The notes: generated by a model from the letters alone, not told the origin. 63,525 nt of DNA, filler included, from 4 parts of 4 records of this genome joined end to end with filler, not necessarily neighbours in it, one strand, 5' to 3'; positions 1 through 18,369 are shown, counted from the first letter of the whole stretch. Made by a program: numbers and translations.

Positions 1-559
1 CCACGACCAAGTGGAAGCCATGACCATGGCTGACCGGATTGTGGTGTTGGACGCAGGTAACATCGCCCAAGTTGGTTCGCCACTTGAGCTGTATCACAAG
101 CCAGACAATCTGTTCGTGGCCGGCTTTATCGGCAACCCAAAGATGAACTTCTTGGAAGTGATTGGCAAAGGCGTTGAAAAAGATGGCGTTCGGGTGGAAG
201 TGCCTGGTGTCGGCGAATTTGTTTTGCCCGTCACTGCCGTTGATCCAAACAGTGTTAAAGATCGTGCGCTCACTTTGGGCATCCGTCCTGAGCACACCCA
301 CTTGTCAGAAGGCGAGATTGGTTTGGACCTTCAAGCCAATGTTGTTGAGCGTTTGGGCATCCACACAGTGGGCTATGCCAACCGCGAAGGCCAAGATGAA
401 GTGATTTGCACCGTGCAAAGCGGCTCAGCGCCGATCAAAGCTGGTGAGAAATTCAAGCTGCGCTTCAACGCAAAAGACTGCCACCTGTTTGATGCAGAGG
501 GCAAAGCCTTTACGCGCAATTTGGACCTTAAAGGATTGGGCTTGCCTGATCTCGACTAA
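1..559 (+). CDS. Carbohydrate ABC transporter ATP-binding subunit (MalK/UgpC type), 5' partial
   Basis: Frame opens [15 protein letters not shown] (H-loop), then [12 protein letters not shown] and LGIRPEH (TOBE domain) typical of CUT1 ATPases. Confidence 0.93.
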
Positions 560-610: not shown

Positions 611-640
611 GAACCCCATCTTTTGATGGGGTTCTTTTTT
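611..640 (+). terminator. Rho-independent terminator between convergent genes
   Basis: GAACCCCATC-TTTT-GATGGGGTTC perfect 10-bp stem followed by TTTTTT. Confidence 0.85.
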
Positions 641-642
641 GT

Positions 643-1035
643 CTACGCCACTGTTTTCAATTCGCATTCACCTTCCAAATGCCAAATCTTGGCCACGATC
701 TGCCAGCCCCGTTTTTCGTCCCAGACAAAATTGAGGTGATCAACAAAGATGCTCGTGCGTGAGCGCAGGCGCAATTTCACCATGGCACTCAATGGCGACA
801 ACCAATCAATGGTGATGATCTCATCATATCGTTTTTGATTGAAACTGGCAGGCGAAGGACGACTGGCCACATCAGCGCGGAAGCTGGCAATGGGGTCAAC
901 GAAGATCTCGCCATTGTCTGCATCGAATAGGGTGGAGGAGGGGTGAAATACGGCATCCAACTTATCAACATCGCAAAAATAGATGGCGTCAAAATAGGTT
1001 GAGATGGCGGTGAAAAGCAGATCTGTGCGTGACAT
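643..1035 (-). CDS. NTF2-like (lumazine-binding_2/SnoaL-type) protein
   Basis: About 130 aa; YFDAIYFCDVDKLDAVFHP...AMVKL...FVDHLNF...WQIVAKIW pattern of NTF2-like proteins; start could be 1047 or 1035. Confidence 0.75.
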   Translation of the reverse strand: MSRTDLLFTAISTYFDAIYFCDVDKLDAVFHPSSTLFDADNGEIFVDPIASFRADVASRPSPASFNQKRYDEIITIDWLSPLSAMVKLRLRSRTSIFVDHLNFVWDEKRGWQIVAKIWHLEGECELKTVA

Positions 1036-1162
1036 ATAAAACTCCATTGAAATTCTGCTGTAATTTCCTGGAGTTTTCTAAAATTTTAGATCAAATTCCA
1101 GTGGCGGAAATGACGATATGCGTCAAATTCCCGCCAAACGGATATTCGCCTCGAAATAAGGG

Positions 1163-2230
1163 CTACCAAACCCGGCCGCGTGCAGCGACGTCAACCATTT
1201 CGATAAACTCGCTATTCCGATGCAACGCAACTTGGTCCATCAAATTGCTCACCACGCATGTATGGTTCGGGATGATCCGGATTTTGTCACCAACGTTTGG
1301 CTTGTCTTTGCAGGCAGAAAGGTCAACAACCGCATGTTCTTCAGACAGACCACTGATCACCGCTTCAGGATAATCAACAATATAGCCAAAGTCCGAAAAG
1401 CCCAGCAGATCTGACGTGAGCGCCTTCGACCCGGCGTCCAGCACGGCGCGATTATCAGTCGGGCGCGACACAACAGTGGCCAAAATGGTCATGGCACAAT
1501 CATCAAATGTGCAATGGCCCGCCCGCACCAAAGAGCGGTCATTATAAATATAAGTCCCTGCACGATGCTCGGTAGCAGACTTGGCTTTTTCCGCTGAAAA
1601 TAGGCTCGGCGATCCGCCGCTTGAAAGCACGGGGCAGGCAATGCCTTCTTCGGCCAGCAACGCTTTGGTTTGATTGAAGAACAGATCAACATCATCTTCG
1701 CCATTGGGTGACGGATATGTCATCAACCCACCAAAAGTGAGGCCGGAAGCAGCGTCGATTTTCTTCGCCAATGCTAAGGCTTCGGCAGGTGATTGCACGC
1801 CGCAACGCCCGCCGCCCGTGTCGCATTCCACCAAAACGGTTAGGGGCTTATGGCCATCGAATGCGGCAGCTAAACCTTCAATGGTTGCAGCGCTGTCGGC
1901 AACAACGGACAGAGTGACTTGCTCGTTCAAATGCCGCAAAGGTTCCATCTTTTCCGCGCCGACAATGTTGAAGGTCAACATAATGTCTTTAATGCCCGCA
2001 TCAGCAAACACTTGTGCTTCAGAGATTTTTTGACAAGTGATGCCAATGGCTCCGGCATCAAGTTGCTTTTGCGCAAAGCGTGGAATCTTATGGGTTTTGA
2101 TATGCGGGCGCGATTTTTTGCCCGCTTGATCGAGGTAAGATTGCACCCGTTTAATATTGGCATCCACGATGTTCTCATCGATCAGCACAACAGGCGTACT
2201 CAGATTATAAATCGAGTTGTTTTCAGTCAT
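1163..2230 (-). CDS. D-threonine aldolase / DSD1-family PLP-dependent enzyme (fold type III)
   Basis: RPHIKTHK PLP lysine, GGGRCGV, EHRAGTYIYND, LSEEH, IIPNHTC metal-binding motif. Confidence 0.92.
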   Translation of the reverse strand: MTENNSIYNLSTPVVLIDENIVDANIKRVQSYLDQAGKKSRPHIKTHKIPRFAQKQLDAGAIGITCQKISEAQVFADAGIKDIMLTFNIVGAEKMEPLRHLNEQVTLSVVADSAATIEGLAAAFDGHKPLTVLVECDTGGGRCGVQSPAEALALAKKIDAASGLTFGGLMTYPSPNGEDDVDLFFNQTKALLAEEGIACPVLSSGGSPSLFSAEKAKSATEHRAGTYIYNDRSLVRAGHCTFDDCAMTILATVVSRPTDNRAVLDAGSKALTSDLLGFSDFGYIVDYPEAVISGLSEEHAVVDLSACKDKPNVGDKIRIIPNHTCVVSNLMDQVALHRNSEFIEMVDVAARGRVW

Positions 2231-2261
2231 TATGATTTCCCGCTTGGCGCGTTTGATTTGG

Positions 2262-3743
2262 TTAGCCCAGATTATGCGGATCAGCGACCTTGGGCCAAAT
2301 GTTTTTTGGCGCTTTTTGATAATCTGTTGTCGCAGGGTCGTTAGGATAAGGTCGACCTGCTGAACAATAAATCACCTTCTCCGCAATCGGCGCGAATGAA
2401 TCATAGAAATGATTGGTGGATTTGATCAGCAAAATATCCTTGCGCGTCCAATCGACACCGCCCACTTCAAAAAGGCTCTTATCAAAACTTTGGCAGCGGG
2501 TTGAATTCAGAATGACTTCAATCCCGTCAAAGCTGATTGTGGCAATATCGCCCATGGGCACAAAGCTATCGCCAAAACGGTGCTCTGCATTGGCGACAAG
2601 CTTTTCAACCTTCACCCGCTTATCCACCGGATTGCCAGTGAAAGGAGCTGACTTTGCGCCGAACCGAAGTGGGATCACCGCACCTTCGCCAGCAGCGAAA
2701 CAGATTTGCACCGCAATCGGGTCCCAAATGGTGCCAACAGCAAAGTTGCTGGCGCCAACGCGCATCAGCTCTTCCAAAATCACGGTAGCGTCACCCGCAG
2801 TACCGCCACCTGGATTGTCCCACATATCTGTTAGAACTACAGGCTTTTGCGCACCTTTGGCAGTGGCCACGGCATCGGCTACTGCGTCAACCTCATTGGG
2901 TTGTTCAGGCATGCATTTGCCGCGCATGGCAAAAACTTCAAGGCCGAGTTCCCGCGCAAGCTGAGCGCCTTTTTCCTTCTGTCCATCAGTCACCACCACC
3001 ATTTTGGTGCCCATTTCGGGTACGTCAGATGCCATAAAACCGTGGATGAGGGAGAGAGATAAAATATCTTGATCGCTTTTTTCAAGCGATACCATCTTAT
3101 CAACGAAATTGCGCATTGGCTGGCGCGATGTGGGAAACACATCGATCATCTTGCAATCAAATACATTCACCTCAGGCTTCACTTGGCCCTGAAGTGTGGC
3201 GTCCAAAATGCGATAAAGATCTTCTGCGCGATCCACAAAATCAATGTGAGGAAACTCTTTGAACGCCATAAAGAAGTCGAGTTGCTCCACCCGCTTTTGC
3301 GTGAGCTGGCTGTGCGGATCAAAAGTGGCGCAGATCACACAATCCGCGCCAACAATTTCACGAACCCGTGCGAGCAAGTCGCCCTCCGGGTCATCATAAT
3401 CTGCGGCCACCATCGCCCCATGCAAACCAAGCGCCACCGCATCAAGCGGCATAGCTTGTTTCACTTGGTCCAAAATCTCATCACGCAAGCTTTCAAAAGC
3501 CTGAGAGTTGATGATGCCGGCGGGGTCTGCCCAAGCGGCGGTGCCTTCAATAAAGGTCCACTGCTTTTCCTTTGCCCATTTGCGGCCAATTGGGATGACT
3601 GCAGAACAAAGGGTCGGGGTCTCTGGGTGGGTGCCAGGACGGGCATACAAGGATGCCTCAAAACCCCGCCGATCAATTGCGATAGGTGAAAAAGTGTTCG
3701 ATTCGGTGGCCAAGGCCGCCGAGAAGACGCGCAGATTTGCCAT
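2262..3743 (-). CDS. M81 family (MlrC-like) metallo-amidohydrolase, paralog 1
   Basis: ATESNTFS, LHGAM..DDPEGDLL, FDPH, FPHID, DNPGGG, KSTNHF motifs. Confidence 0.9.
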   Translation of the reverse strand: MANLRVFSAALATESNTFSPIAIDRRGFEASLYARPGTHPETPTLCSAVIPIGRKWAKEKQWTFIEGTAAWADPAGIINSQAFESLRDEILDQVKQAMPLDAVALGLHGAMVAADYDDPEGDLLARVREIVGADCVICATFDPHSQLTQKRVEQLDFFMAFKEFPHIDFVDRAEDLYRILDATLQGQVKPEVNVFDCKMIDVFPTSRQPMRNFVDKMVSLEKSDQDILSLSLIHGFMASDVPEMGTKMVVVTDGQKEKGAQLARELGLEVFAMRGKCMPEQPNEVDAVADAVATAKGAQKPVVLTDMWDNPGGGTAGDATVILEELMRVGASNFAVGTIWDPIAVQICFAAGEGAVIPLRFGAKSAPFTGNPVDKRVKVEKLVANAEHRFGDSFVPMGDIATISFDGIEVILNSTRCQSFDKSLFEVGGVDWTRKDILLIKSTNHFYDSFAPIAEKVIYCSAGRPYPNDPATTDYQKAPKNIWPKVADPHNLG

Positions 3744-3748
3744 GTTAA

Positions 3749-4255
3749 TTAAGCTCTTTCGCCACCCATGGGATTAGGCAAATAGCCAGTGAAACCTGTA
3801 ATCTTCCAACGCCCGTCCACATTGGCGCAGTAATATACAGTTTGCCACAACATGCGATCGCTCGTGCCGTCAGCGCGTGGAATGCGGCCATCAAATTTCT
3901 TGTGCACAATGGCCTTATCGCCATTAATTTCAATGTCGCGCAGCACGGTCGCGCTGAAAATCGCGTCCATCGGGTCGCCAGCGAAGGCACCTGCCTGCGA
4001 TTCCTTTTGGAAATCGTGAGCCTGACGCAACCACTCATCTGCATAATCTTTAAGGGTCGGGAAAGCCAAACGCCAATGGTCTGGGTTGGCAGTGTTGTGC
4101 CCATGTACGCCCATAAAGCCTTGTTCTACAAAGTCATTTTCGACCATTGACCAATCGGCTGCGATAAAGGCTTTGATGTCACGATCCACCAACATTTCCC
4201 AAATTTGATGGCGTGCACTGTCTGATTTTTCGAAAGGATTCTGTCTTGCTGTCAC
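3749..4255 (-). CDS. Conserved hypothetical protein, probable NTF2-like fold
   Basis: 168 aa, 5 bp upstream of the M81 gene; DIKAFIAADW...GDKAIVHKKFDG...GRWKITGFTGYLP resembles NTF2/SnoaL strand endings. Confidence 0.65.
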   Translation of the reverse strand: MTARQNPFEKSDSARHQIWEMLVDRDIKAFIAADWSMVENDFVEQGFMGVHGHNTANPDHWRLAFPTLKDYADEWLRQAHDFQKESQAGAFAGDPMDAIFSATVLRDIEINGDKAIVHKKFDGRIPRADGTSDRMLWQTVYYCANVDGRWKITGFTGYLPNPMGGERA

Positions 4256-4380
4256 GATACTTTACTCGGCAAAAAATTTTCATTTTTGTTAAAATTCCTA
4301 TAGAAAAACTGGATTATTTCTGCTCATATGTCAATCTATAAGAAAATAATTTACATCGCTGTAGAATTTGGAGACGATCA
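4256..4380. promoter_or_regulatory. AT-rich divergent promoter region with candidate RpiR operator(s)
   Basis: 125-bp AT-rich spacer between divergent operons; imperfect palindrome GAAAATAATTTAC near 4342-4354. Confidence 0.45.
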
Positions 4381-4770
4381 ATGACGATTAAACGTTATGG
4401 GGCGGAAAAATCTGGCGCGGGCGGCCAAAATTTGCCTTTTGCACGCGCAGTTGAAGCCGATGGCTGGCTGCATGTTTCTGGCCAAGTGGCCATGAAAGAC
4501 GGCGAAATCGTCGGTGGCAATATTGTTGAGCAAACCCATGTGGCGATCAAGAACCTAATCGCGATTTTGGAAGAAGCCGGTTACGGCATGGAACATGTTG
4601 TGCGCGTTGGCGTATGGCTGGATGATCCACGTGACTTTTGGTCGTTCAATGGCGTTTACAAATCTTACTTTGGCGAACATCCACCTGCACGCGCCTGTGT
4701 ACAATCGAGCTTAATGGTCGATTGTAAGGTTGAAGTGGATTGCATTGCCTTTGATCCCAGCCGTAAATAG
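4381..4770 (+). CDS. RidA/YjgF family enamine/imine deaminase
   Basis: 129 aa; VSGQV, FNGVYKSYF, PPARACV (catalytic Arg), VEVD. Confidence 0.92.
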   Translation: MTIKRYGAEKSGAGGQNLPFARAVEADGWLHVSGQVAMKDGEIVGGNIVEQTHVAIKNLIAILEEAGYGMEHVVRVGVWLDDPRDFWSFNGVYKSYFGEHPPARACVQSSLMVDCKVEVDCIAFDPSRK

Positions 4771-4795
4771 GGTCTGGTAACAAAAAGGCGGATCG

Positions 4796-5662
4796 ATGGC
4801 GGATATCATTGCCACATTGCAAAAGCAGCTTTCAGAGCTTTCCCGCTCAGAGCAGCGCATTGCAGAAATTGTTTTCGAAGACAAACAATTTGCAGTGAAT
4901 GCCTCCATTATCGAATTGGCGGCGCGCGCAGACGTGTCGCCGCCAACCGTTACCCGCTTTTGCCGTCGCTTGGGGTGCAACTCTTTTTCAGAGTTTAAAG
5001 TGCGGCTCGCACAGTCTGCTTTTATCGGCACGCGTTATCTGGAGCCTGAAATCAAGGTCACCAGTACGCAAGAGGTGATCGATACAGTGATGGGTCGTGC
5101 GCAATCCACCCTCAATGTGTTGCACGAAAATGTAAACGCTGAGGTGGTGGAGGAATTTGCGGCGCAAATTCTAAATGCCAAAATGATCTATGCCTTCGGG
5201 TCAGGCGGCAATTCATCATTGTTTGCCCATGAGGTGCAAAACCGACTGTTCCGGTTGGGCTTGCGCGTCACCGCATCGGAAGACCATTCCATGCAATTGA
5301 TGACAGCCTCCACCTTGGGCGAAGATGACATGGTGATCGGGCTTTCCATTTCCGGCCGCAACCGAGAATTGGCACGGGCGCTTGAAGTGGCCGCTGGCTA
5401 CGGCGCATACACAGCAAGTATCACCAAAGGTGAGAGCATTGTGGCGCAATCCAGCAATCTTAGTCTGGCCGTGGATTTGCCAGAGGGCACAGATGTGCTG
5501 CGCCCATCTTCTGCTCGATATGCCTTTTTGGCTGCGATTGATATGATCGCCTTTTTGGTGGCGATCAGACGCAAAGATAGCGCGATTGAACCGCTGCGCC
5601 GCATTAAGCGGCAATTGGTGACCTATCGCGATGAGGACGATACACAAGTACTTGGAGATTAG
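4796..5662 (+). CDS. MurR/RpiR family transcriptional regulator (HTH + SIS)
   Basis: LSRSEQRIA...VSPPTVTRFCRRLGCNSFSEFK HTH; SISGRN SIS motif. Confidence 0.95.
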   Translation: MADIIATLQKQLSELSRSEQRIAEIVFEDKQFAVNASIIELAARADVSPPTVTRFCRRLGCNSFSEFKVRLAQSAFIGTRYLEPEIKVTSTQEVIDTVMGRAQSTLNVLHENVNAEVVEEFAAQILNAKMIYAFGSGGNSSLFAHEVQNRLFRLGLRVTASEDHSMQLMTASTLGEDDMVIGLSISGRNRELARALEVAAGYGAYTASITKGESIVAQSSNLSLAVDLPEGTDVLRPSSARYAFLAAIDMIAFLVAIRRKDSAIEPLRRIKRQLVTYRDEDDTQVLGD

Positions 5663-5665
5663 ATC

Positions 5666-6457
5666 GTGTCTGATCAAGCACAACAAAAAACAGCCATCGT
5701 CACTGGCGCTGGCGGCGACATTGGTCGCGCCATTTGTGTAGAGCTAGCAAAAGATGGCTTTGCGGTTGTGGCGCTTGATATTGCGCAAGAGCCAAATGAT
5801 GAAACCATCCGCCAAGTGCGCGAAGCGGGCGGCAAAGGCGAAGCACTGATCTGCGATATTTTGGATGCGGATGACCGCGCCAAAATGGTGGAATCCGGGC
5901 GGGCGCTGGGCGCAATCTCATTGTTGGTGAACAATGTGGGCGCAATCACAGCAGAGAGCTTGCAGCAGGCTACTGTCGAGAATTTTCAACAAGATTTTAA
6001 AATCAATCAGCTGGGTGCCTTTGCATGTTTCAAAGCCATCGAGCAGGATTTGATCGCCAATAAGGGCGTGTTGACCAATATTGCATCGGTCAATGGTTTG
6101 GGCGTTTTCGGGCACCCAGGCTATAGCGCCGCGAAGGCAAGCCTTATTCACTTCACCCGTTTGGTGGCAGTTGAATATGGCAAATATGGCATTCGCGCCA
6201 ATGCGATTGCCCCTGGCACCGTGCGCACCCAAGCATGGGACGAACGGGCCAAGAAAAATCCTCAAGTATTTGAGGATGCAAAACGCTGGTATCCCTTGCA
6301 GCGTGTTGCCGACCCTATCGACATCGCAAATGTGGTGAGCTTTATTTCGTCTCCAGCTGCGGCTGCAATTTCAGGCGCCTGTCTGCCTGTGGATTGCGGG
6401 CTAACTGCAGGGCAGGCGGAATTGGCCGGCACCTTTGCACAATCAGAAGACTATTAG
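5666..6457 (+). CDS. SDR family NAD(P)-dependent oxidoreductase (candidate sugar 1-dehydrogenase)
   Basis: TGAGGDIG, LVNNVG, ASVNG, YSAAK catalytic motif, IRANAIAPG. Confidence 0.92.
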   Translation: MSDQAQQKTAIVTGAGGDIGRAICVELAKDGFAVVALDIAQEPNDETIRQVREAGGKGEALICDILDADDRAKMVESGRALGAISLLVNNVGAITAESLQQATVENFQQDFKINQLGAFACFKAIEQDLIANKGVLTNIASVNGLGVFGHPGYSAAKASLIHFTRLVAVEYGKYGIRANAIAPGTVRTQAWDERAKKNPQVFEDAKRWYPLQRVADPIDIANVVSFISSPAAAAISGACLPVDCGLTAGQAELAGTFAQSEDY

Positions 6458-6504
6458 AGGAAATCCTGTCGATTTCCGTCCCTAAGATTTAAGAGGAACA
6501 TATT

Positions 6505-8427
6505 ATGTCAACGCCAAAATTCCGTCTTGAGGCCACATGGGTGGACTGCGGGGAGGAGCCAGCGAAGATGAAGCTGGCGCTGACGAACCTTTCTGGCGCA
6601 GACCTGAAAAATTTTCGATTGTCCTACACAGGTTTGATGCGTGTTAAAGCCGACGTTGAAGTGGAAAATGCCACTTTTGTGAAACGCTTTGCCAATTTCC
6701 ACCAGTTTGATCCGCTCGACAATGTTGTCGTGGCAGATGGTGACACTTGGGAATTCACCGTTCAAAACCTGACCAGCAACGCCCAACACCGTATGGATGG
6801 GCCAAAATCTGGTTATGTGACCCTTGAGGACGGGGCGCATGTGGATGTGGACGCAGGCGATTTGCAAATTGAAGGTCGCCCAAGTGAGTTTGCCGGCAAT
6901 CTTGTCCCAGAAGGCAAATTGACTGACCCAATTGCTGTGGTGCCATGGCCAAACCATGTTGCCGTCAGTGATTTTGATACGCCACCAGTGGTGCTGTGCG
7001 CTGCCGAAGGCACAAGCGCTGACGAGAAGCGCGCGATCAACAACGTGGCTGCATTGGCCAAGCGCCTGAAGCACGAATTGCCAGACCGTTTGCGCCTGAC
7101 AAATGTGCCCGGCGGTCGCAAATTGACTTTGGTGAACAACGCCGCTTTGGCCAGCGAAGCCTATGAGCTTTCGTTCGCGAAAGACGAAGTTGTTTTGACC
7201 TATGGCGATAAGGCTGGATTGAACTATGGTTTGATCACCCTGTCGCACATGATGGACGGGGCAAAAGCTGAACCGACCAAGTTCAAATTCCCAACATCAG
7301 GCGAAATCAAAGATGCCCCACGCTATGAATGGCGCGGGTCTCATTTGGACGTGTCTCGTCAATTCTACCCAACAGATGCAGTGTCTCGCTTCATCGACAT
7401 TTTGGCGTGGAACAAGCTGAACAAATTCCACTGGCACCTGTCTGACGATGAAGGCTGGCGCGTGGAGATTAAAGGCTACCCCAACCTCACCAAAGATGGG
7501 GCTGTGATGGGCGAAGGCCACGCCATGCCCGCACAATTGGGTGCTGGCCATGAATCAACAGGCGGTTTCTACACCCAGGAAGAGATCAAGGATTTGATCA
7601 TTCACGGGCAGGCGCTCAATGTTGAGATTATGCCAGAATTGGATATTCCGGGGCACTGTAACGCCGTGTTGGCAGCTTATCCTGAGTTGCGCGACCCTGA
7701 AGAGCCAGATGACAATTACCGCTCTATCCAAGGCTATCCAAACAATGCCATCAACCCGGGCATTCCAGCCACGTACAAATTCATCGAAACAGTGATGGAA
7801 GAAATTTCCGAACTGTTCCCGTCCAAATATATCCATGTGGGCGGTGATGAAGTGGATGAGAACTCTTGGTTGCAATCTCCAGCAGCACAAAAAGTGATGA
7901 ATGAAGAACGCTTGAACGGCACCATGCAGTTGCAAGCACACTTTTTGGGTAAAGTGCAAAAATCAATCCGCAAAAAAGGCAAAATTGTCGGCGGTTGGGA
8001 TGAAGTATCTCACGGCGGCGGCATTGATAAAGAAGGCGGCACGCTTCTGTTTGCATGGCAAAAGCCAGAGGTTGGCTTGGAGCTTGCCGAGCAGGGCTAT
8101 GACGTGGTGATGACACCCGGCCAAGCCTATTATCTCGACATGGCACAATCACCAGTTTGGCAGGAATCAGGTGCATTTTGGGCGGGCTATGCCTCACCAG
8201 AAAAAACCTACACCTATGAAGCCGCTGGTGAATTCCCAGACCATTTGAAAGGTCGCTTGAAGGGCGTTCAAGCTTGTATCTGGTCAGAGCATTTGATTTC
8301 GCGTCAAGTGTTCAACCATCAAGTTTTCCCCCGCTTAAATGCAATTGCTGAAGCTGGGTGGACGGAAAAGGAGAAAAAGGACTGGCCACGTTTTGCTGCA
8401 CAATGCAAAATGCTGCCACGTCTATAA
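6505..8427 (+). CDS. Beta-N-acetylhexosaminidase (GH20), no signal peptide
   Basis: DAPRYEWRGSHLDVSRQF, FHWHLSDDEGWR, ELDIPGH, HVGGDE catalytic pair, GVQACIWSE, FPRL. Confidence 0.95.
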   Translation: MSTPKFRLEATWVDCGEEPAKMKLALTNLSGADLKNFRLSYTGLMRVKADVEVENATFVKRFANFHQFDPLDNVVVADGDTWEFTVQNLTSNAQHRMDGPKSGYVTLEDGAHVDVDAGDLQIEGRPSEFAGNLVPEGKLTDPIAVVPWPNHVAVSDFDTPPVVLCAAEGTSADEKRAINNVAALAKRLKHELPDRLRLTNVPGGRKLTLVNNAALASEAYELSFAKDEVVLTYGDKAGLNYGLITLSHMMDGAKAEPTKFKFPTSGEIKDAPRYEWRGSHLDVSRQFYPTDAVSRFIDILAWNKLNKFHWHLSDDEGWRVEIKGYPNLTKDGAVMGEGHAMPAQLGAGHESTGGFYTQEEIKDLIIHGQALNVEIMPELDIPGHCNAVLAAYPELRDPEEPDDNYRSIQGYPNNAINPGIPATYKFIETVMEEISELFPSKYIHVGGDEVDENSWLQSPAAQKVMNEERLNGTMQLQAHFLGKVQKSIRKKGKIVGGWDEVSHGGGIDKEGGTLLFAWQKPEVGLELAEQGYDVVMTPGQAYYLDMAQSPVWQESGAFWAGYASPEKTYTYEAAGEFPDHLKGRLKGVQACIWSEHLISRQVFNHQVFPRLNAIAEAGWTEKEKKDWPRFAAQCKMLPRL

Positions 8428-8468
8428 TCCTCCCCAATTAAACCCTTCAAAAGAATAGGGACATCATA

Positions 8469-9902
8469 ATGAGAATTGCCGTTGCAGGCTTGCACACAGA
8501 GTGCAGCACATACACCAGTGTGGAACAGACAAAAGAGAACTTTAACATCATGCTTGGCGCCGATGTGCTCAAGCATGAACTGTTCAAATTTCTGGACCAT
8601 GAAGGCGTGGACATTGCGCCCTTGTTTTACGCACGGGCAACGCCCGGCGGGCCTGTGGCGGCGAAAACTTATGATGACTTTAAAGCACAAACATTGGCCG
8701 CGCTCGACGCGGCCTTGGCTGAAGGCCCTTTAGATGGGGTCTATCTCGCCATGCATGGCGCGGTGCACGTGACCGGCATGGAAGATGCGGAAGGTGATTT
8801 TCTCGAAGCGATCCGCCAGCGGGTGGGCGACGAGGTGATCATTTCCTCAAGCTATGATTTGCATGGCAATGTGACCCAGAAAGTGATCAATCAACTCGAC
8901 ATTTTCACTGCATTCCGCCACGCGCCACATATCGATACCTATGAGACCTTCGAACGTGCATTCCTTTATTTGGTCGACGCGTTGAAAACGGGCAAACGCC
9001 CTAAAGTCTGCTGGGCACCAATCCCCGTTTTGTTGCCGGGCGAAAAGACCAGCACCGTTGATGAGCCAGCGAAATCGCTCTACGCCCAATTGTGGGACAT
9101 CGATAAGCGTAAAGGCGTTTTGGATGCTTCCTTGATGGTTGGCTATGTGTGGGCTGATGTGGCCCGCGGCACTGCCGCAGCCGTTGTTTGTGGCTATGAC
9201 GATGCGGCAATCAAAAAAGCGGCGGAAGACATCGCCCAATCCTATTTCGATGCGCGGGAAGACTTTGCCTTTGGTGTGCCAGCGGCCCCGTTGGCAGAAA
9301 CATTGGACGCGGCATCAAAAATTGAAACTGGCCCGATTGTGATTTGCGACAGCGGTGACAATCCCGGTGGCGGTGGCGTAGGCGACCGTGTGGACGTGTT
9401 GAAAGAAGCCATCTCTCGCGAGCTGAAAGATTTGCTGGTGATTGGCATTTGCGCGCCAAAAGCGGTCGCCAAAGCCTTTGAAGCGGATTTGGACGCGAAA
9501 GTGAATATGAGCATTGGTGCCGAACTGGACACGCTAAACTCTCCAACCATTGAGGGTGACGCCACAATTTTGCGGCGGGCAGAACTGGCCAATGGCCAGC
9601 GATTGGCGCTGGTGGAAATTGGTGGCGTGCGCGCCGTGTTGAACGAAAAACGGCAAACATTTCATGAGCCATCTGACGTGGCGGCGCTTGGTTTGGACGT
9701 GGCAGAAGAAAAGATGATCGCCATCAAATGCGGTTATATTTCTGCCGATATGTCAAAAATCGCCAACCCAAATCTGATGGCTTTGACTGATGGCGCGGTG
9801 AACCAAGACATTGAACGTTTGGTCAATAAACATCGCCAAAGCCCCACATTTCCGTTCCAGAAAGACTTTTCATATACGCCCAAAGCCATTATGTCAGAGT
9901 AA
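8469..9902 (+). CDS. M81 family (MlrC-like) metallo-amidohydrolase, paralog 2
   Basis: MRIAVAGLHTECST, MHGA...DAEGD, YDLHGN, APHID, DSGDNPGGGG. Confidence 0.9.
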   Translation: MRIAVAGLHTECSTYTSVEQTKENFNIMLGADVLKHELFKFLDHEGVDIAPLFYARATPGGPVAAKTYDDFKAQTLAALDAALAEGPLDGVYLAMHGAVHVTGMEDAEGDFLEAIRQRVGDEVIISSSYDLHGNVTQKVINQLDIFTAFRHAPHIDTYETFERAFLYLVDALKTGKRPKVCWAPIPVLLPGEKTSTVDEPAKSLYAQLWDIDKRKGVLDASLMVGYVWADVARGTAAAVVCGYDDAAIKKAAEDIAQSYFDAREDFAFGVPAAPLAETLDAASKIETGPIVICDSGDNPGGGGVGDRVDVLKEAISRELKDLLVIGICAPKAVAKAFEADLDAKVNMSIGAELDTLNSPTIEGDATILRRAELANGQRLALVEIGGVRAVLNEKRQTFHEPSDVAALGLDVAEEKMIAIKCGYISADMSKIANPNLMALTDGAVNQDIERLVNKHRQSPTFPFQKDFSYTPKAIMSE

Positions 9903-9955
9903 ATTGATCTGATCGTAACGCACCATCGTTTCCCGATGGTGGGAGAATAGGCACA

Positions 9956-11449
9956 ATGGAAAAGTTTGATTTAGCGATTATCGGCGGTGGCGTGAACGGT
10001 TGCGGCATCGCCCGCGATGCGGCGGGGCGCGGAATCAAAACCTATCTGTGCGAAATGGACGATTTTGGCGGCGGCACATCGTCCGCCTCCACAAAATTGA
10101 TCCATGGTGGTTTGCGCTATCTCGAACATTTCGAATTTGCGTTGGTGCGCGAAGCGCTGACCGAGCGCGAACGCCTCTGGTCCATCGCGCCACATATCAT
10201 TTGGCCCCTGCGGCTGATTTTGCCTCACCGTAAAGGCTTGCGGCCCAAATGGATGCTGCGCGCCGGGCTTTTCCTTTATGACTATATCGGTGGCCGTAAA
10301 CGGCTGCCAACGGCGCGAACGGTGAATTTGAGCACCGACCAAACAGGCGCTGTGTTGAAAGATGATTATTCAACCGCGTTCGAATTTTCAGACTGCTGGG
10401 TGCAGGACAATCGGTTGGTTGTGCTCAACGCGATTGATGCACAACGGCGCGGCGCCACGGTTGAGAAATATCAAAAAGCGGTGGATGCAAAGCGCGTTGA
10501 GGGCGGCTGGGAAGTTACCTTGGAAAATGTGCAAACTGGCAGCCAAAAAGTGATTTTTGCGAAAGCATTGGTGAATGCGGCAGGGCCATGGGTGGAGCAA
10601 GTGTTCCGCTCTGTCACCCACCAGAACACTCAGGCAAAAGTGCGCATGGTAAAAGGCTCCCACATCATTGTGAAAAAGCTGTTTGATCACGACAAAGCCT
10701 ATTTCTTCCAGAATCCAGATGGCCGTATTTTCTTCGCCATTCCATATGAGATGGATTACACGCTGATCGGCACCACTGACCAAGACTTTGAAGGTGATCC
10801 GCGCGGCATCCAAATTTCGCCAGAAGAAACGACCTATCTGTGCGAAGCTGTTTCAGCCTATTTCAAAAAGCCCGTGACACCAGAAGATGTGGTGTGGAGC
10901 TATGCCGGCGTACGCCCGCTTTATGATGATGGCGCGTCCAACGCTTCTGAAACCACCCGCGACTATGTGCTGAAACTGCGCGGGGAAGGTGAGGCAGCGC
11001 CGATCCTCTCCATCTTTGGCGGTAAGATCACCACCTATCGCCATTTGGCAGAGGACGTGATTGAAAAACTCGCAGCCCGTTTCCCAGAATGGCATCAAAA
11101 TGCCGGCTGGACGGGCAAAGAGCCACTGCCCGGTGGTGCGTTCGGCATTGATGCAATTGAAGCGACGGCGGAGAAACTGGCGCAAACCTATCCATTTTTG
11201 AGCGCGCGGCATATTGAACGCTTTATGCGCCATTATGGCGATGCGAGCTTTGATGTGTTAGGCGATGCTAAAAGCAATGAAGATCTTGGGCAATGGTTTG
11301 GCCCCGATCTGAGCGAAAAAGAAGTCCGCTATTTACAGCAGCACGAATGGGCGGATAAGCTGGACGATATCATCTGGCGGCGCACAAAGGCGGGCTTGTC
11401 CATGAACGAAACGGACAAAGCGGCTTTGGAGGCGTTTCTCGCAAAATAG
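9956..11449 (+). CDS. glpD: FAD-dependent glycerol-3-phosphate dehydrogenase
   Basis: IGGGVNGCGIARDAAGRG, GTSSASTKLIHGGLRYLE, GVRPL, GGKITTYR. Confidence 0.88.
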   Translation: MEKFDLAIIGGGVNGCGIARDAAGRGIKTYLCEMDDFGGGTSSASTKLIHGGLRYLEHFEFALVREALTERERLWSIAPHIIWPLRLILPHRKGLRPKWMLRAGLFLYDYIGGRKRLPTARTVNLSTDQTGAVLKDDYSTAFEFSDCWVQDNRLVVLNAIDAQRRGATVEKYQKAVDAKRVEGGWEVTLENVQTGSQKVIFAKALVNAAGPWVEQVFRSVTHQNTQAKVRMVKGSHIIVKKLFDHDKAYFFQNPDGRIFFAIPYEMDYTLIGTTDQDFEGDPRGIQISPEETTYLCEAVSAYFKKPVTPEDVVWSYAGVRPLYDDGASNASETTRDYVLKLRGEGEAAPILSIFGGKITTYRHLAEDVIEKLAARFPEWHQNAGWTGKEPLPGGAFGIDAIEATAEKLAQTYPFLSARHIERFMRHYGDASFDVLGDAKSNEDLGQWFGPDLSEKEVRYLQQHEWADKLDDIIWRRTKAGLSMNETDKAALEAFLAK

Positions 11450-11479
11450 CGCCGCGCCTCATCTGACGCGGATTGCTTT

Positions 11480-12412
11480 ATGCTCTTTATCTTTAATGTC
11501 ATCGCCCCGGTATTTTGCCTTGTGGGTTTGGGCTACTTCGCCACCTGGTTTAAGGCGTTTCCACAAGATGGCATTAAAGGTCTCATCGCCTTCACCAACA
11601 ATTTCGCCGCGCCGTTCCTGCTGTTCCGCGCCATGCTGACGATTGATTTTTCCTCAGCGCTTAATCCCAACCTGATTCTGCCCTTTTACATCGCAGCGCT
11701 AACGGGCTTTGTGGTGGGCATCATCTTGGCGCGCACACAATTTGGCGCGCGGCCCGGCGTGTCCGTGGCGATCGGCTTTTCCGCGCTGTTCACCAACACA
11801 GTTTTGCTGGGCATTCCCATCATTCAGCGTGCCTATGGCGATGAAGCGCTGCCAACGATCTATATGATCATCGGCTTCCATGCGCCCACTTTGATGAGCG
11901 TGGGCATGTTGACCATGGAAATGTCGCGCCGGGATGGCCGACCTATCAGCCATGCACTGCGCGACGCGCTAAAACGCATCGCCACCAACCCGCTTTTGAT
12001 CGGCATCGCTTCCGGCGTGGCGCTCAATCTTTCTGGATTGAAGTTGCCTTTATTTCTCGACGACGCAACAAAATTATTGGTCAGCGCGGTGCTGCCAACG
12101 GCCCTGTTTGGCCTTGGCGCAGCGTTGACGCAATATCGACTTTCAGCAAGCTGGGGTCCAGCTTTGGCCATGGCGCTGATCAAAAATATACTGCATCCGG
12201 CGTTGGCATATTTGATGCTGGTGCCGCTGTTGGGTGTACCGTTGGAGATTGCACGGATTGTGGTGCTGCTGGCGGCAATGCCCACTGGCATCAACGCCTA
12301 TATCTTTTCCACCTACTTTAATCGCGGCACAGACGTGGCCGCCACAACAGTTTTGATCGGCACGCTGTTAAGTGTCTTCACCATTTCATTCTGGCTATGG
12401 GTGCTCTCATGA
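11480..12412 (+). CDS. AEC (auxin efflux carrier) family transporter
   Basis: About 10 hydrophobic segments; FTNTVLLGIPI, NPLLIG, AAMPTGINAY motifs. Confidence 0.88.
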   Translation: MLFIFNVIAPVFCLVGLGYFATWFKAFPQDGIKGLIAFTNNFAAPFLLFRAMLTIDFSSALNPNLILPFYIAALTGFVVGIILARTQFGARPGVSVAIGFSALFTNTVLLGIPIIQRAYGDEALPTIYMIIGFHAPTLMSVGMLTMEMSRRDGRPISHALRDALKRIATNPLLIGIASGVALNLSGLKLPLFLDDATKLLVSAVLPTALFGLGAALTQYRLSASWGPALAMALIKNILHPALAYLMLVPLLGVPLEIARIVVLLAAMPTGINAYIFSTYFNRGTDVAATTVLIGTLLSVFTISFWLWVLS

Positions 12413-13335
12413 AAAATATTCTGATCGCTGGCGGGTTGCCGCAAGATTGCCTGCAATTGATGGACCAGCATTTCAACTTGTTCCGCATGGACCAAGCGGA
12501 CGATAAAGATGCGTTTTTGGCCAAACATGCGACTGAAATTGACGGGGTAAGTGGCGGTGCTATCAGTGCGGAATTGATGGATAAACTGCCGAACCTGAAG
12601 ATTATCGCCAATTTCGGCGTGGGCTACGATAATATCGAGGTTGCCGCCGCCAAGGCGCGCAATATCATTGTCACCAACACGCCAAACCGATTGAACGCTG
12701 CAGTGGCGGAACTCACGCTCGGTTTGATGATCGCCTTGGCCCGCCGCATCCCCAAAAATCACGAAATGGTGCGCAATGGCCATTGGCCAAGCGTGAAGCG
12801 TGCACCATTGACCGGGCAGCTGGCCGGGGCAAAATTGGGCATTTTAGGGTTAGGCCGGATTGGTAAAGCCATCGCCAAACGCGCCGAAGCTTGCGACATG
12901 GATATTAGTTATTTTGGCCGTACGGACCAACATAATCTCTACCGATATTTTGACGATCTCACCCAAATGGCCAGCCATGTGGATTGGCTGGTGATCATCG
13001 CCCCCGGCGGCGCGGAAACGGACAAACTGGTCAATGCTGATGTGATCGATGCATTGGGGCCTGAAGGTTTTCTCGTCAATATAGCCAGGGGCAGCATTGT
13101 TGATGAAGCAGCGCTGATCTCAGCGCTTGAACAAGGCAAACTGGGCGGCGCGGCATTGGACGTTTTTGAAAACGAACCACATGTGCCAGACACCTTGCGC
13201 AACCTGCCAAACGTTGTGCTCTCCCCCCACGCAGGCAGCGCCACCCACGTGACGCGCCAGCAAATGGGCGCACAAGTGGTGGACAATCTGATTGCCTATT
13301 TTGATACGGGGCAGCCGCTCGATCCCGTGACATGA
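12409..13335 (+). CDS. D-2-hydroxyacid dehydrogenase (GhrB-like)
   Basis: FGVGYD, GILGLGRIG, VNIARGSIVDE, LDVFENEP, SPHAGSAT; ATGA overlap with the AEC gene. Confidence 0.92.
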   Translation: MKNILIAGGLPQDCLQLMDQHFNLFRMDQADDKDAFLAKHATEIDGVSGGAISAELMDKLPNLKIIANFGVGYDNIEVAAAKARNIIVTNTPNRLNAAVAELTLGLMIALARRIPKNHEMVRNGHWPSVKRAPLTGQLAGAKLGILGLGRIGKAIAKRAEACDMDISYFGRTDQHNLYRYFDDLTQMASHVDWLVIIAPGGAETDKLVNADVIDALGPEGFLVNIARGSIVDEAALISALEQGKLGGAALDVFENEPHVPDTLRNLPNVVLSPHAGSATHVTRQQMGAQVVDNLIAYFDTGQPLDPVT

Positions 13336-13829
13336 AAATCCATGTCACCGGCAATTCAGGAGCGGGCAAAACCACATTCGCAAAAGAGCTAGGCAACGCG
13401 ATCAGTTTGCCGGTGTTTGGACTGGACAAAGTGGTTTGGCAGGCGGGTTGGCAAAAAACACCGCCTGATCAACGCACTCGATTGGAAAGAGAGCTGATTG
13501 AGCGGCCTGACTGGATCATTGAGGGCGTTTCCGCACAAGTGCGACAGGCAGCGGACATCATTGTATTTCTCGATGTGTCTCGCCCCGTTGCATATGCTCG
13601 CGCGTTAAAGCGCAACCTGCCTTATCTATTTAAAAGCCGTCCGGAACTGCCCCAAGATTGTCCTGAATACAAACTGGCATTGCAACATCTCAGGCTGGTT
13701 TGGAACTTTAAGCGCCAAACCCGCCCCAACATTATGCGCGATATGCATCTCCATCCTGAGAAATTTCTGGTGGTGAAAACCAAGGCGGACCGGGCCGCCG
13801 CGATAAGCAAACTCCGACTTCAAAAATAA
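13332..13829 (+). CDS. Adenylate-kinase-like P-loop protein (FlaR/topology-modulation family)
   Basis: GNSGAGKTT P-loop, LDKVVWQAGW, WIIEG, ADIIVFLD. Confidence 0.8.
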   Translation: MKIHVTGNSGAGKTTFAKELGNAISLPVFGLDKVVWQAGWQKTPPDQRTRLERELIERPDWIIEGVSAQVRQAADIIVFLDVSRPVAYARALKRNLPYLFKSRPELPQDCPEYKLALQHLRLVWNFKRQTRPNIMRDMHLHPEKFLVVKTKADRAAAISKLRLQK

Positions 13830-14848: not shown

Positions 14849-14878
14849 AAAAGCCCCGCAATTGCGGGGCTTTCTTTT
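14847..14878. terminator. Bidirectional intrinsic terminator
   Basis: AAAAAAGCCCCGC-AATT-GCGGGGCTTTCTTTT between convergent genes. Confidence 0.85.
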
Positions 14879-15696
14879 AGCTGTTTGGCATTGCCGTTTC
14901 CACCAGCTGCGCCCAATAGGAGCAGCCATAGGGAATGACATCATCATTAAAATCATATTGGTCTTGGTGCAGACCGGCCGTGTCGCCATTGCCAACAAAG
15001 ATAAAGGCACCCGGGCGCGCATTGGACATGAAAGAGAAATCTTCTCCGCCAAGGCTCGGCTCAGTGTTCGCGTCGACGCGATCTTCGCCCACCAAATTCT
15101 GCGCGACATTCACAGCAAATGTTGTTTGGTCTGGCGCGTTCATGGTGACGGGGTAACCATCATTATACTCCACGTCTGCTTTGGCGCCAAATCCTGCCGC
15201 CACAGTTTCAGCAATGGAAATCAGACGAGACTTCACCTGCAGACGCACATCTGGATCAAGCGCGCGCACGGTGCCTGAAATTTCAACATGCATCGGGATG
15301 ATGTTATGGGCCGAACCGCCTTTAATGATGGTGGTAGACACCACGGCAGATTGAACCGGGTCCACATTGCGGGCCACAATGCTTTGCAGCGCCAAAACAA
15401 TGTGCGATGCAACCACAATCGGGTCGATTGATTTGTGCGGCATGGCGGCGTGGGAATCGACGCCAGTGACCTTGATGTTCCACATATCTGCAGCAGCCAT
15501 AATGCCGCCTTCACGGATGGCAAATTCGCCCACTGGAATGCCGGGGAAATTATGCATGCCGAACACTTCTTGAATGCCGAAACGGTCCATCATGCCATCA
15601 TCAACCATGGCCTTGCCGCCTGCGCCGCCTTCTTCCGCAGGCTGGAAGATCACAGCTACTGTGCCGTCAAAATTGCGGGTTTCGGCCAAATATTTT
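14877..15696 (-). CDS. M20D amidohydrolase (hippurate hydrolase family), 5' partial
   Basis: FQPAEEG, GMHNFPG, SHAAMPH, GGEDFS, LHQDQYDFND; runs into the contig end. Confidence 0.92.
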
Positions 15697-17164: not shown

Positions 17165-17499
17165 GTAACACCAGCACCGCCAGCCTGGCACGTGTCGTCT
17201 ACGTACTGCACCTGGTCGGCCTGATCACCGGCGGGCTCACGGCCATCGTCGGCGTCATCATCGCCCACCTTCATGCCGGCGAAGCCTCGCCACCGCTGCG
17301 CGAACACTTTCGTTTCCAGTACCGCACCTTCTGGATTGGCTTGCTGTACTGGTTCATCGCCGGCATCACCACCCTGGCCCTGATTGGCTGGCTGCTGATG
17401 GTGGTGATCACCATCTGGTGGATCGTACGCTGTGCCCGGGGCCTGAGCGCCCTGAACCGCAACCAGCCCCCCGGCAAGATCGACACCTGGGGCTTTTGA
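17161..17499 (+). CDS. DUF4870-like membrane protein
   Basis: VYVLH...IVGVIIAH...HFRFQYRTFWIG...WWIVRCARG; ATGA overlap with the Kunitz gene. Confidence 0.8.
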   Translation: MSNTSTASLARVVYVLHLVGLITGGLTAIVGVIIAHLHAGEASPPLREHFRFQYRTFWIGLLYWFIAGITTLALIGWLLMVVITIWWIVRCARGLSALNRNQPPGKIDTWGF

Positions 17500-17589
17500 T
17501 AGCACTCCGGACCATCTGTCACATAAATGACACAGATGCCGGCCAGACTGGCCGGCTCGCGCCCCTCAACCCGCTCCCAAGGAGAAGTC

Positions 17590-18282
17590 ATGTTGTCCCT
17601 GCGCCTGCTTACCCTCACCCTCTGCACCCTGTTTCTCGCCGCCTGCGCCCGCAGCCCGGTAGTCCAGCTGTACGACGGCCCGGCCAAAGCCGACAGCCAG
17701 GTGCTCACCGTGAAGGTGCCCAGCGAAATTGAAGTGTTCACCATCAACGGCAAGGAAGTGGAAGGCGTGAACACCTTCTTCGCCACCGATTTCAAGGAAC
17801 TGAAACTGGCCCCCGGCCGCTATGAGATTCTCGCTTACTACAAGGAGCTGTGGCAGCTGGATGCGGACAACCATGAAATCGTGAAAAGTAACCCGGCCAA
17901 CTTCACTATCGAAGGCGCGCCTGGCGAGGAATGGCTGCTGGGGTTCAATACGCCACAGGACGTGGACGAGGCACGCGCCATGGAAGACAGCTTCTACGGT
18001 TGGGTGGAAAATACCAAAAACGGTGAACGCGTAGACGCGCAAAAGTCTGAGCTGATTCTTAATCGCGGCTTTCTGGCCCCCATCACCGGCGAAGAAGTCA
18101 CCACGGCCACATCCAATAACGTGGCGCCACAGGCAGGGACAGAGGCAACCACAACCGCTGCCAACGCAACAAAAGGTACTAGCGTAGCACCGGAAGCCAA
18201 CTACCTGGACACCCTGAAAGCCCAGTGGAAACAAGCCACCGCAGAAGAGCGCCGCGAGTTTTTACAATGGATTGCCAAGTAA
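17590..18282 (+). CDS. DUF2057 (YccT-like) lipoprotein
   Basis: AGGAG RBS before ATG 17590; lipobox LAAC; C-terminal LKAQWKQATAEERREFLQWI. Confidence 0.8.
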   Translation: MLSLRLLTLTLCTLFLAACARSPVVQLYDGPAKADSQVLTVKVPSEIEVFTINGKEVEGVNTFFATDFKELKLAPGRYEILAYYKELWQLDADNHEIVKSNPANFTIEGAPGEEWLLGFNTPQDVDEARAMEDSFYGWVENTKNGERVDAQKSELILNRGFLAPITGEEVTTATSNNVAPQAGTEATTTAANATKGTSVAPEANYLDTLKAQWKQATAEERREFLQWIAK

Positions 18283-18369
18283 ACCTGGCACCACAGGAGA
18301 AATGCTCGGCAGATAGCTATAGCTCGAGCCCCAACGGTTTACTGTTCTAGATAGACCCAACACCTGCAG

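Follow-up and report, generated by a model that had tools for sequence, protein, structure and literature searches.

What do the two divergent operons around an RpiR-type regulator near the left end of the window (the whole 63,525-nucleotide stretch of DNA analyzed here) break down, and by which route? They encode a GH20 β-N-acetylhexosaminidase, an SDR oxidoreductase, two M81 amidohydrolases (M81a and M81b), a pyridoxal 5′-phosphate (PLP) enzyme of fold-type III, a RidA-family deaminase and two putative NTF2-like proteins, and they lie beside the gene of a sugar ATP-binding cassette (ABC) ATPase. A first-pass annotation had read these genes as an oxidative, non-phosphorylating pathway in which N-acetylhexosamine (HexNAc) is converted to N-acetylhexosaminate, then to hexosaminate, and finally either to 2-keto-3-deoxyhexonate and ammonia or to glycine and a tetrose. 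Its inventory is accurate: every gene that it named, the divergent layout, and the neighboring ATPase were recovered from the open reading frame (ORF) list and from Pfam and NCBIfam profile scans. Our answer, held with moderate confidence, is that the window carries the right-hand part of a Hyphomicrobiales amino-sugar catabolic island, at the core of which stands a variant, in Alphaproteobacteria, of the ong pathway for oxidized chitin products, with M81a as the predicted deacetylase.

The underlying chemistry, which had been thought possibly unpublished, has been in print since 2022 as the ong pathway of Pseudoalteromonas prydzensis (Jiang et al. 2022, PMC9537276). That paper describes the steps as follows. 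OngA, a GH20 enzyme, splits GlcNAc-GlcNAc1A, where GlcNAc is N-acetylglucosamine and GlcNAc1A is N-acetylglucosaminate. OngB, a D-aminoacylase, deacetylates GlcNAc1A, and OngC, a fold-type III PLP enzyme, yields 2-keto-3-deoxygluconate (KDG) and ammonia. OngD, a RidA protein, is essential; OngR, an RpiR protein, represses; and KdgK acts next. The pathway is also known from Vibrio, and complete ong clusters are given in the paper for Gammaproteobacteria and one betaproteobacterium only. The structure of OngB is the subject of a further paper (PMC12017989).

That the window genes form one conserved functional unit, as had been proposed, is borne out by a neighborhood survey. A search of species-representative genomes with M81a gave 80 loci, one per species, 64 of which have full 10-kb flanks. 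Among these 64, at set identity thresholds, the neighbors are the SDR (62), RidA and RpiR (60 each), GH20 (59), the PLP enzyme (57), NTF2b (56), an ABC binding protein and a Gfo/Idh/MocA-family protein, hereafter Gfo (53 each), M81b (41), and a CutC-family protein (33); the loci were picked by M81a similarity, from related species, and the counts are not of independent events. GH20, Gfo, the binding protein, the SDR, and the PLP enzyme are found all together in 46 of the 64. The arrangement is far from chance. M81b is missing from Devosia-type clusters and from those with a tripartite ATP-independent periplasmic (TRAP) transporter. The closest genome among those scanned (locus L001, genome G001) is titled Maritalea mobilis CGMCC 1.7002 and is 95.6% identical to the window over 13.7 kb of DNA; a near-identity search of plasmid DNA yielded trivial matches only. 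In an unbiased sample of 401 Pseudomonadota genomes, drawn evenly across the phylum, M81a orthologs (at least 50% identity) occur in 17, and all 17 also have a PLP-enzyme ortholog (at least 49%). At a threshold of at least 45%, PLP-enzyme orthologs occur in 28 of the 401, including 11 of the 384 genomes without an M81a ortholog. The two genes are adjacent or at most 7 kb apart in 10 of the 17 genomes and occupy separate loci in the other seven. One genome counted in the raw tallies, G384, carries an unpublished flag and supports none of the claims made here.

The product of the core is suggested by variant clusters, identified in 20-kb stretches around the sample matches. The variants keep M81a, the PLP enzyme, RidA, and RpiR, and the transporter is swapped. 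In L093, a PfkB kinase (300 bits to KdgK, the family that it matches best), RpiR, and RidA are divergent from a TRAP transporter (DctQMP), M81a, and the PLP enzyme, with NTF2b adjoining. L094 combines a TRAP transporter, M81a, the PLP enzyme, DgoK (Pfam, 266 bits), a 2-keto-3-deoxy-6-phosphogalactonate (KDPGal) aldolase (255 bits, cut-off 207), a kinase of the type acting on KDG or 2-keto-3-deoxygalactonate (KDGal), and RidA. The module in L105 comes with an Opp/Dpp-type ABC transporter. L097 has an ABC transporter, the SDR, RidA, M81a, the PLP enzyme, and NTF2b; neither GH20 nor any nag gene lies within 20 kb. In L097 and seven related genomes (L113–L119), M81a is accompanied by RpiR, an SDR, and an ABC transporter of the sugar type, and GH20 and Gfo are lacking. 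TRAP systems transport carboxylates, and KDG/KDGal kinases and KDPGal aldolase act on 2-keto-3-deoxyhexonates. Because the variants join M81a and the PLP enzyme to TRAP transporters, to KDG/KDGal kinases, and to an aldolase, the simplest reading is that the two enzymes convert an amino-sugar acid, whether taken up or formed in the cell, to KDG or KDGal. The predicted sequence from N-acetylhexosaminate via hexosaminate (by M81) to 2-keto-3-deoxyhexonate and ammonia (by the PLP enzyme with RidA) is thus supported by the variant clusters, along with the PLP-enzyme residue pattern given below. Of the KDG kinase and aldolase, which the annotation had proposed to seek outside the window, kinases are linked to the core in L093 and L094 and an aldolase in L094, and the L001 genome has KdgK-like, Eda, and DgoK-DgoA genes away from the island.

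A second line of evidence ties the island to ong-type clusters, which were identified by gene content, i.e., by crossing GH20 and PLP-enzyme matches in the sample, and not via named Ong sequences. Three such clusters were found, one defined by Pfam scan (L138) and two by ORF layout and tblastn only (L139 and L140). Their content is RpiR, a PLP enzyme (424 aa), an Amidohydro_3 protein (477 aa), RidA, SSF, PfkB, a KDPG aldolase, and GH20 (816 aa). The window RidA is 58% identical to the ong-linked RidA, at 144–145 bits, in all three genomes, and other paralogs reach at most 56.5 bits; by this comparison it clearly belongs to the ong-cluster RidA subfamily. The window RpiR and the ong-linked RpiR share 33% identity; the latter is the best match in each of the three genomes but narrowly so (159–161 versus about 150 bits). 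No OngB-type Amidohydro_3 ortholog was found in the five M81a-cluster genomes searched (G001, G249, G169, G354, and G197; best match 29 bits), nor is there an OngB-type D-aminoacylase in the window by Pfam and NCBIfam scans. Neither Pfam scans nor tblastn place a PfkB or SSF gene in the island.

In place of OngB, M81a is predicted to be the N-acetylhexosaminate deacetylase. It matches the MlrC structure 7YLQ at 333 bits and retains MlrC residues E39, H133, D167, H169, H191, and D332, all identical in the alignment. The MlrC study gives E39, D167, H169, and H191 as zinc ligands and H133 and D332 as further essential residues, and it describes MlrC as releasing Adda from linear microcystin (PMC9982164). 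The microcystin-binding residues are lost from M81a: W59 is replaced by Ala, F67 by Thr, and E70 by Leu. Against the NCBIfam MlrC model, whose cut-off is 999, the scores are 358 bits for M81a and 137 bits for M81b, and no family model of NCBIfam release 20 is passed by M81a. M81b keeps the D-x-H and P-H-x-D motifs, the aligned His, and D-N-P-G-G-G; it is a second, divergent M81 amidohydrolase. We take the scissile bond of MlrC to be that of an acyl group on the α-amine of D-Glu with a free α-carboxylate, i.e., an N-acyl-D-amino acid; if so, N-acyl-D-amino acids are a natural substrate class for the M81 fold. In the open full-text literature (most subscription journals lie outside that search) no paper was found that ties M81 to amino-sugar acids.

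The same MlrC match, with its intact metal site, could be taken to mean that the M81 proteins are peptidases and that the island degrades a glycopeptide or D-amino-acid peptide, such as cell-wall fragments. GH20 would then take off GlcNAc, peptide bonds would be cut by the two M81 proteins, and the D-serine or D-threonine set free would be deaminated by the PLP enzyme with RidA; OngC also deaminates both of these amino acids (PMC9537276). In L095 and L112, PLP-enzyme orthologs have an M20 peptidase and ABC transporters for amino acids as neighbors, and the Opp/Dpp-type transporter of L105 fits as well. Other features point away from peptides, as follows. The importer is sugar-type (SBP_bac_1, MalK/UgpC ATPase) and not peptide-type; KDG/KDGal kinases and an aldolase directly follow the PLP gene in L093 and L094; the TRAP transporters of these two loci point to a carboxylate monomer; the residues that bind a microcystin peptide are gone; and RidA is of the ong-linked subfamily. 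We consider a peptidase role unlikely.

The residues of the PLP enzyme predict a hexosaminate dehydratase/ammonia-lyase, a functional analog of OngC. Its K45 and H323-x-C325 align with the PLP lysine and the metal site of D-threo-3-hydroxyaspartate dehydratase (3WQC). Two D-threonine aldolases in the alignment have H-x-D instead, and the stretch that holds their base His193 is a gap in the island enzyme. In the AxDTA paper, the metal site is His and Asp in D-threonine aldolase and His and Cys in the dehydratase, which lacks the base His193 (PMC4401734). Of the 86 loci with a match of at least 45% identity, 83 have both H-x-C and the lysine, and in the other three the local alignment misses one site. 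The OngC-like proteins of the three ong-type clusters all have H-x-C, and H-x-D is found in all seven of the weaker PLP-enzyme matches. By overall score, the best solved match of the island enzyme is D-threonine aldolase 4V15 (167 bits, versus 135 bits for 3WQC), and on that ground one could argue for a retro-aldolase cleaving hexosaminate to glycine and a tetrose, the other branch that had been put forward. Aldolase activity is unlikely because the metal site is dehydratase-type, H-x-C and not H-x-D. With the His193 segment deleted as well, and with RidA co-occurrence suiting an eliminating enzyme, we hold the retro-aldolase reading to be extremely improbable.

Some PLP-enzyme matches fall outside the family so defined. 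Those of about 30% identity (L120 and L127–L132) were rejected as members, being H-x-D aldolase-type, and L127–L132 have no M81, RidA, RpiR, or GH20 neighbors. L120 (genome G333, 7900–13800) has a distant M81 (36% identity) about 4 kb from its H-x-D fold-type III PLP gene, and may be a different M81–PLP pairing. In L112 (genome G193, 6916–11223) a PLP-enzyme ortholog (45%, H-x-C) sits between a Cys/Met-metabolism PLP enzyme plus M20 peptidase and a YjgF-like protein, another trio of amidohydrolase, dehydratase, and Rid protein, assembled from different families.

Is the route non-phosphorylating, as was first supposed from the absence of nagK, nagA, and nagB? Literally, the absence stands: by tblastn, the window has no homolog of NagA, ROK kinase, NagB, KdgK, Eda, DgoK, or DgoA. 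As an argument it fails, being a window-edge artifact, because the window starts inside the transporter operon. The ATPase fragment at the edge shares 99% identity with the complete L001 ATPase (378 aa) and appears to come from the final gene of an operon for a sugar ABC importer, which the start of the window interrupts. In L001 the operon runs nagA, ROK kinase, cutC, Gfo, two permeases, binding protein, and then the ATPase, the importer being sugar-type, with an SBP_bac_1 binding protein and a MalK/UgpC ATPase. The L001 nagA scores 310 bits against TIGR00221 (cut-off 226); the ROK kinase has NagK as its best family at 196 bits, below the cut-off of 380; and a true nagB lies at another site in the genome (315 bits, cut-off 237). 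A fully oxidative route from GlcNAc or chitobiose, in which GH20, the SDR (to N-acetylglucosaminate), M81, and the PLP enzyme with RidA replace NagK, NagA, and NagB, would find support in the co-occurrence of the SDR, M81a, the PLP enzyme, and RidA with sugar-type ABC transporters, in L097, where the module is free of GH20 and nag genes, and in the finding of NagA within 10 kb of M81a at just 19 of the 64 loci and of a ROK kinase at 13. It is opposed by nagA and the NagK-like kinase heading the same transporter operon in L001, with nagB elsewhere, and by Sinorhizobium meliloti, in which growth on GlcNAc as the source of nitrogen requires an N-acetylglucosamine kinase. We rate such a complete replacement as rather unlikely.

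The L001 genome lacks LPMO_10 and GH18, which, taken with its KDG/KDGal genes, fits a scavenger of soluble products. A PfkB gene 3 kb from its nagA was considered as KdgK and rejected, having no NCBIfam match at an E value of 1e-20 or better and 59 Pfam bits. The L001 Gfo gene (17371–18714, minus strand) has a long open N-terminal extension; its likely start gives 399 aa and no Tat or Sec leader. The CutC-family gene lies beside M81b in many Rhizobium-type loci and within the nagA operon in Maritalea (L001 18748–19491, minus strand), a recurrence that hints at an amino-sugar role instead of copper homeostasis.

The SDR is a candidate N-acetylhexosamine 1-dehydrogenase, which would oxidize a neutral HexNAc to the aldonate. 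Its best NCBIfam match is PRK07074 (330 bits, below the cut-off of 361), followed by glucose 1-dehydrogenase, and the SDR of L097 ranks the same two families in the same order. The SDRs of eight other M81a loci fall into two lineages, as follows: three Rhizobium-type proteins are 53–62% identical to the window SDR, and those of three Devosia-type loci, L097, and L113 are 34–38% identical to it. An SDR is present in all nine sugar-ABC-type clusters examined from the sample (G001, L097, and L113–L119) and absent from the three TRAP/Opp-type clusters (L093, L094, and L105). An SDR step ahead of the acid, as the annotation had it, is consistent with this distribution by transporter type. Among solved structures, Gfo comes closest to two NAD-dependent sulfoquinovosidases, 8QC2 and 8QC3 (80 bits at most), and it may act either as a dehydrogenase or as an NAD-dependent glycosidase.

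The pairing of GH20 and the SDR with M81a bears on one more alternative. The core might act on another N-acyl-D-β-hydroxy amino acid, not derived from HexNAc, with GH20, the SDR, and Gfo acting separately on chitobiose under a shared regulator. The varied contexts of the PLP family (at least 45% identity) would suit this, as would the lack of an assigned role for M81b, CutC, and NTF2b. Nonetheless, GH20, the SDR, and the M81a–PLP pair stay together in Maritalea, Devosia, Rhizobium, Chelativorans, and others; the two SDR lineages and two GH20 identity classes (47–53% and 37–41% at M81a loci) have been recruited to the same neighbors; and RidA links the island to ong clusters. A substrate unrelated to HexNAc is accordingly regarded as quite improbable.

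To return to the ong-like reading, the proposed pathway is as follows. The sugar-type ABC importer would take a β-HexNAc-capped di- or oligosaccharide into the cytoplasm, most likely chitobiose and/or its C1-oxidized form, GlcNAc-GlcNAc1A, where the leaderless GH20 would split it. Free GlcNAc would go to the ROK kinase and NagA of the transporter operon, with NagB encoded elsewhere. N-acetylhexosaminate would be either the imported oxidized reducing end or a product made inside from HexNAc by the SDR and/or Gfo. M81a, as a zinc amidohydrolase replacing the D-aminoacylase OngB, would deacetylate it, and the H-x-C PLP enzyme would then eliminate water and ammonia to give 2-keto-3-deoxygluconate or -galactonate, with RidA speeding imine hydrolysis. 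Unlinked KdgK/Eda or DgoK/DgoA would complete the breakdown, and the RpiR protein would be the local repressor. Since nagA and a NagK-like kinase lie next door in Maritalea, the oxidized sugar may be the pre-oxidized reducing end of lytic polysaccharide monooxygenase (LPMO) products, or N-acetylgalactosamine (GalNAc), rather than bulk GlcNAc.

Several observations weigh against this pathway. For the deacetylase, the proposed general base of MlrC, E70, is the residue aligned with Leu in M81a, and the sole characterized M81 enzyme, MlrC, is a peptidase. For the later steps, the PLP enzyme shares only about 29% identity with the OngC-like proteins of L138–L140 and belongs to a different subfamily; moreover, kinase and aldolase are unlinked in 79 of the 80 M81a-anchored loci, L043 alone having a DgoK-like match, so that the product assignment depends on two of the variants. 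GH20 is no ortholog of OngA: its best match in genome G104 is another GH20, of 643 aa, with 34% identity over the full length, and the ong-linked 816-aa GH20 is less close to it than the 643-aa GH20 of the same genomes. The best family of the SDR, PRK07074, has no assigned function, and Gfo may not be a 1-dehydrogenase, given its glycosidase relatives. The nagA/nagK context was read in a 95.6%-identical relative and not in the window's own genome, and free GlcNAc need not take the oxidative route. Lastly, the non-independence of the locus counts applies here, and in the version of the island that S. meliloti carries on pSymB, M81a and the PLP gene are not neighbors.

On pSymB (L137), VOC and GNAT genes stand in place of the Maritalea PLP gene. 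On pRL11 of Rhizobium johnstonii 3841 (L136), an MFS transporter gene follows the SDR gene, and GH20 is 10 kb off, beside a GNAT gene. S. meliloti SMb21216-21221, also considered, proved to be a different locus with its own glucosamine kinase. The carriers of the island are marine and root-associated Alphaproteobacteria.

The features of the island are collected in the table below, in coordinates of the whole window.

Table. Features at the left end of the window, with position, strand, and basis of assignment.
Feature	Position	Strand	Basis
MalK/UgpC-type ABC ATPase, C-terminal part	2–559	+	TOBE_2, OB_MalK
Hairpin and T-runs between two convergent operons; likely terminator	611–634		consensus match only
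Lumazine_bd_2 protein	643–1047	-	PF12893, 70 bits
Fold-type III PLP enzyme	1163–2230	-	Ala_racemase_N and D-ser_dehydrat
M81a, MlrC-like zinc amidohydrolase	2262–3743	-	DUF1485 and MlrC_C
NTF2b, 168 aa, first gene of the M81a–PLP operon	3749–4255	-	AlphaFold and Foldseek
Divergent AT-rich control region, 125 nt	4256–4380		direct reading of sequence
RidA-family imine/enamine deaminase	4381–4770	+	PF01042
RpiR/HexR-like regulator	4796–5662	+	HTH_6 and SIS
SDR oxidoreductase	5666–6457	+	NCBIfam PRK07074 best, Y-x-x-x-K motif
Cytoplasmic GH20 β-N-acetylhexosaminidase	6505–8427	+	PF00728, 358 bits
M81b, second M81 amidohydrolase	8469–9902	+	Pfam

GH20 has H-V-G-G-D-E at residues 444–449, an instance of H-x-G-G-D-E with its adjacent Asp-Glu pair, which we take to be the catalytic motif. 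Its N-terminus is free of a hydrophobic leader, as judged by eye rather than by a signal-peptide program, in agreement with the annotation's view that it lacks a signal peptide. The closest solved relative is 6EZR, an entry titled Nag2 (371 bits). RidA scores 94 bits against its Pfam family and 94.5 against TIGR00004, under the cut-off of 106.25, and has a P-A-R motif, the arginine of which would be the conserved one of the family.

NTF2b has no Pfam match in the scan of the window proteins. Its AlphaFold model, built on 15 orthologs, has a pLDDT of 92.6, and the Foldseek matches listed from the PDB are NTF2-like, SnoaL-like, or ketosteroid-isomerase-like proteins. The model thus indicates a conserved NTF2-fold protein. 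The true start is the GTG at 4255 rather than the ATG of a 119-aa ORF, and the gene is also present in the variant clusters L093 and L097. The Lumazine_bd_2 gene occurs in 7 of the 64 full-flank loci, all Maritalea, and is an accessory gene confined to that genus, outside the conserved unit; we take its Pfam family to be NTF2-like. The spacer between the divergent operons has one promoter-like match, at 4266–4295. An RpiR operator was sought there and not called, the only palindrome, of 9 nt (4295–4306), being too weak. The hairpin that precedes the Lumazine_bd_2 gene has a 10-pair stem with six G-C pairs and a T-rich tail.

The genes beyond M81b, at 9956–13829 (GlpD, an AEC transporter, a D-2-hydroxyacid dehydrogenase, and a small P-loop protein), were rejected as members of the unit on locus counts: of the 64 loci, GlpD is found in one, the AEC transporter and the dehydrogenase in seven (Maritalea only), and the small P-loop protein, the best family of which is "DNA topology modulation protein", in three. 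The full glpD (9956–11449; 749 bits, cut-off 360) starts 53 nt past M81b. It follows M81b only in the window and its closest relative; in other Maritalea an AEC transporter gene comes directly after M81b. Further on, an M20 peptidase ORF (14877–15689, minus strand; 270 aa, TTG start) matches its Pfam profile only from position 56 and may be truncated or mis-started.

A broader proposal may be made, although we consider it somewhat short of an even chance. In this clade, the M81 proteins would deacetylate N-acetylhexosaminates, a function other than that of a peptidase and the first such for the family, and an NAD-dependent dehydrogenase (the SDR or Gfo), the H-x-C PLP dehydratase, and RidA would complete with them a De Ley-Doudoroff-like oxidative route from GlcNAc/GalNAc or LPMO-oxidized chito-oligosaccharides to KDG or KDGal, running parallel to NagK/NagA in rhizobia (pSymB, pRL11) and marine Devosiaceae. 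If this is true, the ong oxidative chitin pathway extends from Gammaproteobacteria to Alphaproteobacteria, among them plant symbionts as well as marine scavengers that do not degrade chitin and could feed on the LPMO products of others. A concrete substrate would be gained for a clade of M81/DUF1485, a poorly understood family, that is widespread, and one step of a conserved pathway would clearly exemplify non-orthologous replacement. Candidates for making or handling the sugar acid would be the neighbors SDR, Gfo, the NTF2-like protein, and CutC.

How does the island compare with known systems? MlrC shares its fold family and zinc site with M81a; the island differs in the changed microcystin-binding residues and in having no mlrA/mlrB context. 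The D-serine and D-threo-3-hydroxyaspartate dehydratases (3ANU, 3WQC) are likewise fold-type III enzymes, with the lysine in H-x-K-T and a His and Cys metal site, whereas the D-threonine aldolases (4V15, 7DIB) are slightly nearer by overall score but disagree in the site residues. The canonical NagK-NagA-NagB route is represented by nagA and the ROK kinase in the L001 transporter operon and by nagB elsewhere in that genome; its genes are absent from the window and are island-linked in a minority of species.

The closest parallel in logic is the ong cluster. In both, GH20 is combined with a deacetylase of a D-configured N-acetyl amino-sugar acid, acting without prior phosphorylation, and with a fold-type III PLP deaminase, RidA, and RpiR. 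KDG-type kinases, as in the ong (Vibrio-type) cluster, are also found in the variants L093 and L094, and an aldolase in L094. The differences are as follows. The ong deacetylase is an Amidohydro_3 D-aminoacylase, and that of the island would be an M81 zinc amidohydrolase. Uptake in ong is by TonB receptors and an SSS symporter; in the island it would be by an ABC importer of the glycoside. OngA is a periplasmic GH20 of a separate clade, whereas the island GH20 is cytoplasmic and not orthologous. The island has the SDR, Gfo, M81b, NTF2b, and CutC in addition, its kdgK and aldolase genes are unlinked, and the closest island genome is without LPMO, unlike the ong setting. Within the open full-text literature, leaving aside most subscription journals and supplements such as the distribution tables of Jiang et al. 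2022, no oxidative GlcNAc/GalNAc route and no cluster of this kind was found described in Alphaproteobacteria. Thus, the pathway logic is already published; what looks new is the M81 deacetylase, the cytoplasmic entry of the glycoside, and a possible internal oxidation step.

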